A DNA stretch of 64,000 bases, taken from NCBI RefSeq assembly GCF_029227855.1, contig NZ_CP074356.1; one strand, given 5' to 3'. The number at the start of each line of letters is the position of its first letter. Positions within the stretch are counted from its first letter, which is position 1. Shown here piece after piece: positions 61,688 through 62,631 of this stretch. The translations under genes and the position numbers were made by a program. Under the pieces are notes generated by a model. That model was given only the letters and a program-made list of their open reading frames with translations. It had not been told where the DNA came from and ran no database searches. The stretch is from Escherichia coli. Its GTDB lineage: Bacteria; Pseudomonadota; Gammaproteobacteria; Enterobacterales; Enterobacteriaceae.

Positions 61688-62593
61688 ATGAACCCCGCAG
61701 TGGATAATGAGTTTCAGCAATGGCTTTCCCAAATCAATCAGGTATGCGGAAATTTTACCGGACGCCTGCTGACTGAGCGTTACACGGGTGTACTGGATAC
61801 GCATTTTGCCAAAGGACTAAAGCTGAGTACCGTGACAACCAACGGGGTGAATTTATCCCGCACCTGGCAGGAAATAAAAGGCAGCGACGATGCCTGGTTT
61901 TACACCGTTTTTCAGCTTAGTGGTCAGGCAATAATGGAGCAGGATGAGCGTCAGGTGCAGATTGGCGCTGGCGATATTACGTTACTCGATGCCTCACGCC
62001 CCTGTTCGCTTTACTGGCAGGAGTCTTCTAAACAGATTTCATTACTTTTACCACGCACTCTGCTGGAACAATATTTTCCCCATCAAAAACCTGTCTGCGC
62101 AGAAAGACTGGACGCTGACTTACCCATGGTGCAACTCAGTCATCGCCTGTTACAGGAGAGCATGAATAATCCGGCACTTTCTGAAACAGAAAGTGAAGCT
62201 GCGCTACAGGCGATGGTGTGTCTGCTTCGCCCAGTACTTCATCAGCGGGAATCTGTCCAACCTCGCCGTGAACGTCAGTTTCAAAAAGTGGTTACGTTGA
62301 TAGACGATAATATTCGCGAAGAGATATTACGCCCGGAGTGGATAGCCGGAGAGACAGGTATGTCAGTACGTAGTTTGTACCGAATGTTTGCCGATAAAGG
62401 TTTGGTGGTCGCGCAATATATTCGTAACCGTCGTCTCGATTTTTGTGCTGATGCGATTCGCCATGCCGCAGATGATGAAAAACTGGCAGGTATTGGCTTT
62501 CATTGGGGATTTTCCGATCAGAGTCATTTTTCAACGGTATTTAAGCAACGCTTTGGGATGACGCCAGGCGAGTATCGACGTAAATTCCGCTAA
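61688..62593 (+). CDS. feaR: AraC-family transcriptional activator FeaR (301 aa)
   Basis: C-terminal AraC-type HTH in the translation; synteny. Confidence 0.9.
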   Translation: MNPAVDNEFQQWLSQINQVCGNFTGRLLTERYTGVLDTHFAKGLKLSTVTTNGVNLSRTWQEIKGSDDAWFYTVFQLSGQAIMEQDERQVQIGAGDITLLDASRPCSLYWQESSKQISLLLPRTLLEQYFPHQKPVCAERLDADLPMVQLSHRLLQESMNNPALSETESEAALQAMVCLLRPVLHQRESVQPRRERQFQKVVTLIDDNIREEILRPEWIAGETGMSVRSLYRMFADKGLVVAQYIRNRRLDFCADAIRHAADDEKLAGIGFHWGFSDQSHFSTVFKQRFGMTPGEYRRKFR

Positions 62594-62631
62594 CTAATTC
62601 GCGTTGCATGTACAGCAACGCGAATTAGTTA
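62591..62631. terminator. 41-bp near-perfect palindrome overlapping the feaR stop codon; putative bidirectional terminator
   Basis: taactaattcgcgttgc atgtaca gcaacgcgaattagtta, seen directly. Confidence 0.45.

Follow-up and report, generated by a model that had tools for sequence, protein, structure and literature searches.

Rho-dependent transcripts have been found to end at stable stem-loops that no U-rich sequence follows; rut sites lie just downstream of the stem-loops, and the transcripts are protected from PNPase and RNase II (Dar & Sorek 2018, PMC6061677). Another described class consists of hairpin elements that lie between convergent gene pairs and lack intrinsic-terminator sequence, and these have been reported as highly efficient only for highly expressed pairs (bioRxiv 10.1101/2022.10.23.513370). 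From the side of mutation, perfect inverted repeats with arms of at least 13 are about 150-fold enriched in the non-coding DNA of MG1655, and it has been argued that they are preferentially corrected via template switching (Lavi et al. 2018, PMC5941160). Template switching is able to create as well as maintain hairpins (Monttinen & Loytynoja 2022, PMC8794818), and in E. coli, mutation by template switching at quasipalindromes is an established process (PMC7202029). The palindrome at the feaR/ydbL junction of E. coli that we describe here is, most likely, not a classical terminator but an RNA hairpin capping the two transcripts that converge there, an ordinary instance of an already known kind of element.

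The window is the whole stretch of 64,000 nucleotides that was analysed. Within it, feaR (61688-62593, plus strand) encodes a protein of 301 aa, the AraC-type activator of tynA and feaB, and its reading frame matches the NCBIfam FeaR equivalog (E = 2.8e-152). The convergent gene ydbL (62765-63091, minus strand) is the last of ydbH-ynbE-ydbL. The spacer between the two genes, 171 nt in all, is E. coli-specific, and the part of it up to about 62700 is missing together with feaR in feaR-less strains. An inverted-repeat search of positions 62300-62900 returned a single inverted repeat, at the feaR end and between the two convergent genes, in agreement with the first-pass annotation, which had placed a 41-bp near-perfect palindrome with 17-bp arms between feaR and ydbL. 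The left arm (62591-62607, TAACTAATTCGCGTTGC) is AT-rich in its outer 9 bp and GC-rich in its inner 8 bp, and the right arm (62615-62631, GCAACGCGAATTAGTTA) is its exact reverse complement. The arms, 17 nt each and 100% complementary, enclose the 7-nt centre ATGTACA (62608-62614), which gives 17 + 7 + 17 = 41. The centre had been read as tgtaca, which is present, although the true centre is one A longer, and this additional base is the reason for the label "near-perfect". In the K-12 allele the centre is ATGTACT, so that an 18th pair is added and the loop is reduced to 5 nt. Because the feaR reading frame ends at 62593, the left arm opens with the TAA stop codon of feaR (62591-62593), and the start of the palindrome on the stop codon was thus correctly described. 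The remaining spacer (62632-62764) puts 133 nt between the palindrome and the ydbL stop.

The palindrome is real and non-random, and chance is excluded. No other perfect hairpin in the window is as long, the runners-up having arms of 13 and 12, and the longest arms in 30 Markov-1 randomisations of the window reached 8-13, against 17 here. No second copy of the arm sequence occurs in the 64-kb window. The calculation of RNA folding energy that had been proposed for this site gave a very stable structure on both strands (-24.9 kcal/mol, z = -9.6 on the plus strand; -25.5 kcal/mol, z = -8.0 on the minus strand), with the energy equalled in 0 of 200 shuffles; as single-stranded DNA the values are -18.6 and -18.5 kcal/mol.

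For a canonical intrinsic terminator we looked for a GC-rich stem-loop and, directly 3' of the stem, a U-tract of about 5 or more U in 8. The stem-loop is there, with a 17-bp stem whose upper 8 bp are GC-rich. The flanks 3' of the stem are AAACAGAT on the plus strand and GCGGAATT on the minus strand, neither of which is a T-run, and the tail beyond the 8-bp GC core, AATTAGTT, has 4 T in 8. With the stem followed by a T-run on neither strand, the palindrome does not qualify as a canonical intrinsic terminator, and a consensus terminator scan called no site there. What stands of the bidirectional terminator suggested earlier is the position and the symmetric, stable hairpin, but not the classical sense of the term.

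Published data show how transcription behaves at this site in K-12, where the palindrome occupies positions 1446340-1446380 of MG1655. DirectRNA-seq with and without bicyclomycin, which at this locus covers the ydbL strand only, revealed a Rho termination region antisense to feaR for which 1446501 (+) is the best position (Adams et al. 2021, PMC7815308, supplementary file 2). For this region (Rho score 4.03, P = 1.3e-5), the signal was 54 upstream and 14 downstream without bicyclomycin, and 87 upstream and 91 downstream with it (PMC7815308). Set against the MG1655 palindrome, these positions (PMC7815308) place the peak about 120 nt beyond it on the ydbL strand. In K-12, RNA polymerase arriving from ydbL crosses the palindrome before Rho halts it some 120 nt later, and read-through becomes complete once Rho is inhibited. 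Past the hairpin, the C/G ratio in 78-nt windows is 1.4-1.6 within 10-90 nt in the ydbL-sense RNA, and 1.6-2.1 at 80-140 nt in the feaR-sense RNA. For the mapping of 3' ends, also proposed for this site, curated Term-seq data (LB OD 0.4, LB OD 2.0 and M63 glucose) were consulted, in which no end falls between 1445800 and 1446799 on either strand in the three conditions, although the low expression there makes this weak evidence.

We put the chances at about even that the palindrome is a shared 3'-end stem-loop of the kind seen at Rho-terminated transcripts, possibly also acting as a pause or collision site. The same very stable stem-loop of 17-18 bp would be made on both strands at the junction of feaR and ydbH-ynbE-ydbL. 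RNA polymerase would read through the hairpin, perhaps with a pause, and Rho would then end transcription in the untranslated or antisense RNA that follows, no more than 100-200 nt on. We infer that 3'-to-5' exonucleases (PNPase, RNase II) would trim the tail to the hairpin base, and that the hairpin would in this way set and shield the mRNA 3' end. In the feaR direction the transcript would bear the hairpin immediately 3' of the stop codon, and the feaR mRNA end would fall about 40 nt past that codon. With both genes transcribed, the hairpin could fix the meeting point of the converging polymerases.

As in the protective stem-loops of Rho-dependent transcripts, the structure is stable and is not followed by a U-rich tract, C exceeds G downstream, and Rho-dependent termination takes place just downstream, as observed on the ydbL strand in K-12. 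The palindrome differs from these stem-loops in its stem of 17-18 bp, about twice as long as usual and of perfect symmetry, in serving two convergent units, in beginning on a stop codon, and in having no steady-state 3' end mapped by the curated Term-seq at this low expression. Its place at a junction of convergent genes, the stable symmetric fold, the missing T-run, the Rho termination region on the ydbL strand in K-12, the excess of C over G downstream and the pairing kept among natural alleles count in favour of a shared 3' hairpin. Counting against it are the unusual stem length, the relatives that have no hairpin, a C·C mismatch in about 10% of genomes and a nucleotide diversity (pi) not below that of the flanks, and also the lack of a mapped Term-seq end, a point that low expression weakens.

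The distribution of the palindrome is narrow. It is present in about 4,195 of 5,426 complete E. coli genomes, once per genome and at this locus only; the search output gave "2 places" per record, only with the more symmetric alleles, and we read these as the two strands of the palindrome. It is absent in the other genera compared, in which the stop codons of feaR and ydbL abut, and in the conservation check that had been proposed for this site the palindrome proved common among E. coli but missing in other genera. Pseudocitrobacter and Pluralibacter carry the same convergent genes with abutting stops and without the hairpin, and feaR and ydbL can therefore be expressed without it. Nor does the palindrome occur in a divergent lineage of Escherichia (L006) whose spacer measures 73 nt, the only such lineage that one run of a genome-contig scan returned. 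Two FeaR clusters (P0007 and P0002; 84% and 88%) that were considered as other Escherichia species turned out to be frameshifted E. coli genes with ordinary alleles of the palindrome. In strains in which feaR is reduced to a remnant (Z30, AH50 and EcPF18) the palindrome is unchanged.

Five common alleles of the palindrome segregate: one pair occurs in three Watson-Crick states, the apex has a wobble form, and one allele carries a mismatch. The variable pair (10/32) joins arm position 10 (62600), which is C, G or A, to its right-arm partner (62622), which is G, C or T, and in the BL21 type C stands opposite C at these two positions. At the apex (62607-62608) a CA/TG dinucleotide polymorphism is found, and with its TG allele the feaR-sense RNA has two G·U wobbles where the ydbL-sense RNA has two mismatches. 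The stem pairing is intact in about 89% of the 4,195 complete genomes, with C:G, G:C or A:T at the one pair and G·U elsewhere, and the mid-stem C·C mismatch is carried by 409 of them (about 10%). Polymorphism is no lower in the palindrome (pi 0.040) than in its flanks (0.024-0.029). The one-sided stem changes that are common or seen in complete genomes amount to two cases, both of them G·U on the feaR-sense RNA, for which the probability by chance is about P = 0.25.

Several other explanations can be weighed against these observations. The GC-rich upper and AT-rich lower stem, and a hairpin and tail that are identical on both strands, would suit a classical bidirectional Rho-independent terminator whose AT-rich outer stem (AAUUAGUUA) served as the U-tract both ways, yet we regard this as very improbable in view of a tail with 4 U in 8-9 nt, the silent consensus scan and the complete read-through on the K-12 ydbL strand under Rho inhibition. 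A terminating ribosome would also cover the left arm, since the arm starts on the stop codon. A genuine bidirectional terminator exists nearby, between tynA and feaB (59908-59934), and like the palindrome it is a symmetric hairpin between convergent genes, but it is built as A6-stem-T6, whereas the palindrome is without such A-tract and T-tract flanks and on the tested strand needs Rho. The dependence on Rho bears equally on a non-canonical collision terminator (Ju et al. 2019; Wang et al. 2022), a reading that we consider unlikely, in which the hairpin would trap or pause polymerase coming from either side, a head-on collision would block read-through and the trailing polymerase would release the complex. 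Elements of this class are described as Rho-independent, whereas the drop in the ydbL direction here is Rho-dependent. The palindrome does lie between convergent genes, forms the same hairpin on both strands, does not look like an intrinsic terminator, and shares with ynaJ-uspE-type elements the character of a hairpin between convergent stops that is not a canonical intrinsic terminator. The bicyclomycin data record Rho dependence on one strand with feaR barely expressed, and the read-through in LB, a medium in which feaR has hardly any expression, agrees with a need for an opposing polymerase. But the weak expression of both genes in the K-12 data (54 reads in 800 nt) is at odds with a class that is efficient at highly expressed pairs, and the reference element at ynaJ-uspE differs in that its stem is 8 bp long and a T-run flanks one side.

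A protein-binding site had also been suggested in the first-pass annotation, and of this idea there remains a weak resemblance of the arms to a PaaX half-site, with the wrong spacing and a match at chance level. PaaX is the phenylacetyl-CoA-responsive repressor of the neighbouring paa genes, and feaR, tynA and feaB feed phenylacetate to the paa pathway. It seems to us quite improbable that the palindrome is a DNA operator for a dimeric regulator, with PaaX as the most concrete candidate, whose bound protein would be a roadblock or insulator between feaR and ydbL, and a shade less probable still that the C:G allele is a PaaX-type operator linking read-through at the feaR/ydbL boundary to phenylacetyl-CoA. 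Each arm (TAACTAATTCGCGTT) agrees at 12 of 15 positions with WWTRTGATTCGYGWT, which we take to be the PaaX motif, and this motif is found exactly at 55270-55284 and with one mismatch at 55085-55099, both in the paaA-paaZ promoter region; yet with up to 3 mismatches the window holds 29 matches where 34.5 are expected. Next to the published operator TGATTC-N27-GAATCA (PMC9493321), the allele of the window reads TAATTC-N21-GAATTA, with inverted hexamers that agree at 5/6 each but with a spacing of 21 bp, against 27 and 28 in the genuine Pa and Pz sites of the window. The last base of the hexamers is altered on both sides in the K-12, W2-5 and Z30 alleles (TAATTG..CAATTA, TAATTA..TAATTA), with those of K-12 and W2-5 (TAATTG/CAATTA) agreeing at 4/6, and the BL21 allele alters the right hexamer. 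This position is where both genes have their 3' ends and is not in a promoter, and no literature link of this operator kind between PaaX and feaR was found. A neutral history is a tentative but more credible alternative. In this view the palindrome is young and came into being within the E. coli lineage along with the 171-nt spacer, perhaps when a template switch during replication copied one arm in inverted form, and it has been kept perfect not by usefulness but by quasipalindrome correction, the same intramolecular switching transferring a mismatch in one arm to the other. We hold it to be just as tentative that the hairpin maintains itself and is still segregating, with one position found as C:G, C·C, G:C and A:T within one species via templated copying between the arms. 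The restriction to one lineage, with absence both from other genera with abutting feaR and ydbL and from the Escherichia lineage with the 73-nt spacer, is what a neutral palindrome would show, as are its persistence beside feaR remnants, a diversity not below the flanks, and changes of both arms at pair 10/32 in three states (GC, CG and AU) with the mismatched C·C intermediate in 409 genomes. Template-switch inverted repeats (PMC5941160, PMC8794818) are likewise long, perfect and intergenic with complementary both-arm alleles and a mismatched intermediate, although that work is statistical, whereas the palindrome is a single locus at which one species has five common alleles, and arms of 17-18 are at the extreme of the reported distribution. 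Against a neutral palindrome stand a composition typical of transcript-end hairpins (GC-rich top, AT-rich base) and a start exactly at a stop codon between convergent genes, and the one-sided changes that are G·U on the feaR-sense RNA also speak against it, although they are the two cases with P of about 0.25. A neutral origin and a present function are compatible with each other.

Other kinds of element fit poorly or can be set aside. In Rfam 15 nothing matched at the gathering score, the best match being the generic hairpin mir-2574 with 28.6 bits against a gathering score of 90. A REP or BIME repetitive palindrome is ruled out, as the window and every E. coli genome with the palindrome have it at one locus only. 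A mobile-element end, a MITE or a phage-derived element is ruled out as well, since there are no real plasmid, phage or viral copies: the plasmid and phage matches are mislabelled pieces of E. coli chromosome only, and none of 24 viral 15-mer matches is palindromic. An integron attC site, for which we assume the motifs R'' RYYYAAC and R' GTTRRRY, is a poor fit, the palindrome being too short and without extrahelical bases, and so are dif/Xer sites as we take their motif to be. The CytR octamers, presumably GTTGCATT, correspond poorly to a centre that reads GTTGCATG-T-ACAGCAAC, and the boxes that we assume for PurR, NagC/Mlc, TyrR and LexA also fit the palindrome poorly.

If the palindrome is indeed a shared protective 3' hairpin, it adds one more case to a known rule, by which those E. 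coli genes that have no U-tract terminator still finish in a protective hairpin, with the termination itself left to Rho, and its use would be mainly in annotating the transcript ends of feaR and ydbH-ynbE-ydbL. The added value lies in evolution, in a young, E. coli-specific element that segregates as five common alleles. This natural allele series is convenient for relating stem perfection to read-through and mRNA stability, and also for asking whether compensatory hairpin changes arise by template switching; were self-maintenance true, these alleles would offer a ready-made means of telling selection on RNA structure apart from templated mutation. On an NJ tree with Fitch parsimony for 87 metagenome contigs, which can be chimeric, the apex CA/TG change seems hyper-recurrent (9 steps), but the alleles at this position show linkage disequilibrium with those at distances of 57 and 119 nt (r2 = 0.56 and 0.66).

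The palindrome at 62591-62631 reads TAACTAATTCGCGTTGC-ATGTACA-GCAACGCGAATTAGTTA, and the repeat finder resolves it into two arms of 17 nt that are 100% complementary across a gap of 7 nt, with no second inverted repeat in 62300-62900. This confirms the 41-bp near-perfect palindrome with 17-bp arms described in the first-pass annotation, and the sole correction needed is to its centre, which is the 7 nt ATGTACA and not the 6 nt tgtaca. As was also claimed, it starts on the stop codon of feaR (61688..62593, + strand; an ORF matching NCBIfam FeaR at E 2.8e-152 and annotated in RefSeq on identical DNA), whose TAA forms the first 3 bases of the left arm. 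On the other side ydbL (62765-63091, - strand), the last gene of ydbH-ynbE-ydbL, converges on feaR. The palindrome is the longest perfect hairpin of the window, followed by those at 1158-1192, 42068-42097 and 34956-34985 with arms of 13, 12 and 11, and the maximum arm length in 30 Markov-1 randomisations was 8-13. The suggested folding-energy check gave -24.9 and -25.5 kcal/mol for RNA of the two strands (z = -9.6 and -8.0) and about -18.5 kcal/mol for single-stranded DNA, so that length and stability together far exceed a chance origin. The hairpin at 42068 is flanked by A/T-rich sequence, as bidirectional terminators typically are. Most of the spacer is covered by a 45-aa ORF (62646-62783, - strand) that overlaps the ydbL stop in a different frame, and nothing marks this ORF as a gene.

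The perfect symmetry of the arms gives transcripts of both strands the same stem, GC-rich in its upper part (CGCGTTGC/GCAACGCG) and AT-rich in its lower part (TAACTAATT/AATTAGTTA). No T-run lies 3' of the stem on either strand (the tail is AAACAGAT on + and GCGGAATT on -), and counting the GC core alone as stem leaves the tail AATTAGTT, with T at 4/8. The consensus terminator scan called no terminator at the palindrome, and an Rfam search of it returned nothing above threshold. The picture is different at the neighbouring convergent junction of the window, tynA-feaB, where 59908-59934 has the classic form of an intrinsic terminator for both directions (AAAAAACGGCAC-cag-GTGCCGTTTTTT). In MG1655, with feaR at 1446378-1447283 (-) and ydbL at 1445880-1446206 (+), we mapped the palindrome from the feaR end to 1446340-1446380. 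One Rho termination region is reported at this junction, with its best position at 1446501 (+), antisense to feaR (Adams et al. 2021, eLife, PMC7815308, supplementary file 2). In 800-nt windows, untreated cells gave 54 reads upstream and 14 downstream, and bicyclomycin-treated cells 87 and 91 (Rho score 4.03, p = 1.3e-5). The palindrome lies within the upstream window, 121-161 nt ahead of 1446501, which means that transcription in the ydbL direction passes the K-12 palindrome, a perfect 18-bp stem. The drop in signal is due to Rho, and with Rho inhibited there is no stop there in this direction. The curated Term-seq ends of the same study (LB OD 0.4, LB OD 2.0 and M63 glucose) include none at 1445800-1446799 on either strand, which is weak evidence because coverage is low. 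The bidirectional terminator first proposed for this site keeps its place between convergent genes, but we reject its classical form since two defining features fail: the U-tract is absent, and Rho is needed on the tested (ydbL) strand.

By analogy, the best fit appears to be the class described by Dar and Sorek (2018, PMC6061677), in which transcripts that depend on Rho for termination show sharply defined steady-state 3' ends right after stable stem-loops without a U-tract, rut sites lie just 3' of the stem-loop, and the stem-loop shields the transcript from PNPase and RNase II once the diffusely ended tail has been cut back. The palindrome resembles this class in its hairpin without a U-tract, in the Rho region about 120 nt downstream on the ydbL strand of K-12, and in windows of C over G 3' of it on both strands. 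On these grounds we give an even chance to the reading that it is a shared 3'-end stem-loop of feaR and ydbH-ynbE-ydbL. The Rho-terminated tail would be trimmed back and the hairpin would then protect the 3' end, and it would play the same role in the feaR direction.

The 41-mer with its flanks is present in about 4,195 of 5,426 complete E. coli genomes, as a single copy per genome and in every case at the feaR-ydbL junction. Matches on plasmids and phages are chromosome fragments with wrong labels, and none of the 24 viral-contig matches to the arm 15-mer is palindromic; a repeated or mobile element is therefore ruled out. The feaR-less strains BH100N and XH990 lack the palindrome too (in BH100N similarity to the window picks up again at about 62700), and it is intact in Z30, AH50, CUVET16-465 and EcPF18, where feaR is reduced to a 3' remnant. 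The genes feaR and ydbL also converge in Pseudocitrobacter faecalis, P. vendiensis and a Pluralibacter MAG, with adjacent stop codons and neither spacer nor hairpin, and in a divergent Escherichia lineage (L006; feaR DNA 94.5% identical) the spacer is 73 nt and lacks this palindrome. The conservation check suggested for Escherichia finds the palindrome in most complete E. coli genomes but not in this divergent lineage, and the palindrome and its 171-nt spacer are thus a recent trait specific to the E. coli lineage.

Many strains, ST131-type genomes included, retain feaR only as a 3' remnant of about 200-250 bp with palindrome and spacer unchanged (Z30, L002 44-403; also L015, L016 and L018). 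In Z30 the remnant is fused to a paaX remnant, which implies that the tynA-feaB-paa region was deleted. In ETEC1739 (L019 ~340-447, corresponding to window 62614-62631) an IS1 end adjoins the palindrome inside the loop (…GGCAGCATCACC|TGCAACGCC…), and the left arm, feaR and all beyond are missing, as expected of an IS1-associated deletion with its endpoint exactly in the hairpin loop. Strains labelled E. coli carry two deeply divergent forms of ydbL (window 62765-63955, ydbL-ynbE-ydbH; L005 2499-5131; L006 2480-2806), with DNA identity to the window of about 75-76% for XH990 or L006 vs 97.6% for K-12. Set against the 94.5% of the adjacent feaR in L006, this indicates that the spacer is a sharp breakpoint between segments of different history.

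Eight distinct alleles were seen, counted as exact matches among complete E. coli genomes. Pair 10 (62600 with 62622) is G:C in the K-12 allele (1,403 genomes), where a loop A->T change gives an 18th pair, and in the W2-5/O111 allele (1,327), where the apex is TG instead of CA; it is C:G in the window/ST131 allele (880), C opposite C in the BL21 allele (409) and A:T in the Z30 allele (129), and the other alleles, with various stem features, account for about 47. The 112 metagenome contigs, split 42, 42, 11, 13 and 3 plus one other, match this picture. Across the eight alleles 97.8% of cells are a standard pair, pair 10/32 takes the states GC, CG and AU with two unpaired rows, and all fold stably (-20.1 to -27.6 kcal/mol). 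The observed score was reached by 23 of 500 column shuffles, and template switching is a known way for changes in both arms to arise without selection. The TG apex makes two G·U wobbles on feaR-sense RNA and two mismatches on ydbL-sense RNA; the rare allele F3_13_1_3 also has a G·U, and one metagenome singleton a C·A, on the feaR-sense strand. Such one-sided changes are too few to favour a strand (roughly p = 0.25). Segregating positions number 4/34 in the arms vs 26/134 in the spacer, and diversity is not below that of the flanks (pi 0.040 in the palindrome; feaR 0.029, spacer 0.024). The stem is thus retained, but signs of purifying selection are modest.

The main rival to the shared stem-loop is a young neutral palindrome whose perfection is maintained by intramolecular template switching. 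Perfect inverted repeats with arms >=13 are ~150-fold enriched in MG1655 non-coding DNA, and imperfect ones are argued to be preferentially corrected (Lavi et al., PMC5941160); template switching makes hairpins and one-step compensatory changes (Monttinen and Loytynoja, PMC8794818), and E. coli is known to undergo template-switch mutation at quasipalindromes (PMC7202029). The C·C allele in 10% of genomes, the unreduced diversity at the locus and the persistence beside a dead feaR point the same way. We regard this explanation as unlikely but serious, and it is compatible with a present function. Less probable still is a collision-type bidirectional terminator, in which polymerases pause at a hairpin that lacks terminator-like sequence, and head-on and rear-end collisions end both transcripts (Ju et al. 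2019; Wang et al. 2022). The anatomy of the palindrome fits, but elements of this class are said to act without Rho and to be efficient at strongly expressed gene pairs, and the one that serves as reference, ynaJ-uspE, differs in appearance.

For the protein-binding site that the first-pass annotation had offered as its other option, the one concrete lead is a candidate PaaX operator. We take the PaaX half-site motif to be WWTRTGATTCGYGWT, which each arm matches at 12/15; matches of this quality are, however, no commoner in the window than chance predicts (29 vs 34.5 expected). The motif matches with one mismatch at 55085-55099 (-) and exactly at 55270-55284 (+), in the paaA-paaZ divergent promoter region, and downstream of these come second hexamers at 27 and 28 bp (GAATCG and GAAACA, respectively); presumably the two sites are the Pa and Pz operators already described. 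The window allele TAATTC-N21-GAATTA recalls the published TGATTC-N27-GAATCA (PMC9493321), but the spacing differs by 6-7 bp, the location is at the 3' ends of genes, and both hexamers are changed in most other alleles. A PaaX operator here is thus very improbable.

This kind of element is well known, and our literature search turned up no account of the palindrome itself. Its evolutionary side is the most interesting, as a lineage-specific hairpin segregates five common alleles, with one pair in three Watson-Crick states and a mismatched state, and this natural series could test stem function against templated mutation. A neighbour-joining tree of 87 metagenome contigs, based on their flanking sequence, requires 9 changes at the apex CA/TG (62607-62608) vs <=6 at 106 other informative sites, and the apex is in linkage disequilibrium with 62664 and 62726 (r2 0.56-0.66); the pattern may reflect recurrent switching, fine-scale recombination or chimeric assemblies. 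Elsewhere in the window, a near-identical block of about 100 nt holding a terminator-like hairpin (AACCCCCAGC-cta-GCTGGGGGTTTT) occurs twice, 25 kb apart, at ~18198-18295 and, a short way past the paaY-side end of the paa cluster, at ~43742-43839; the two copies share an identical core of 58 nt (18238-18295 and 43782-43839).
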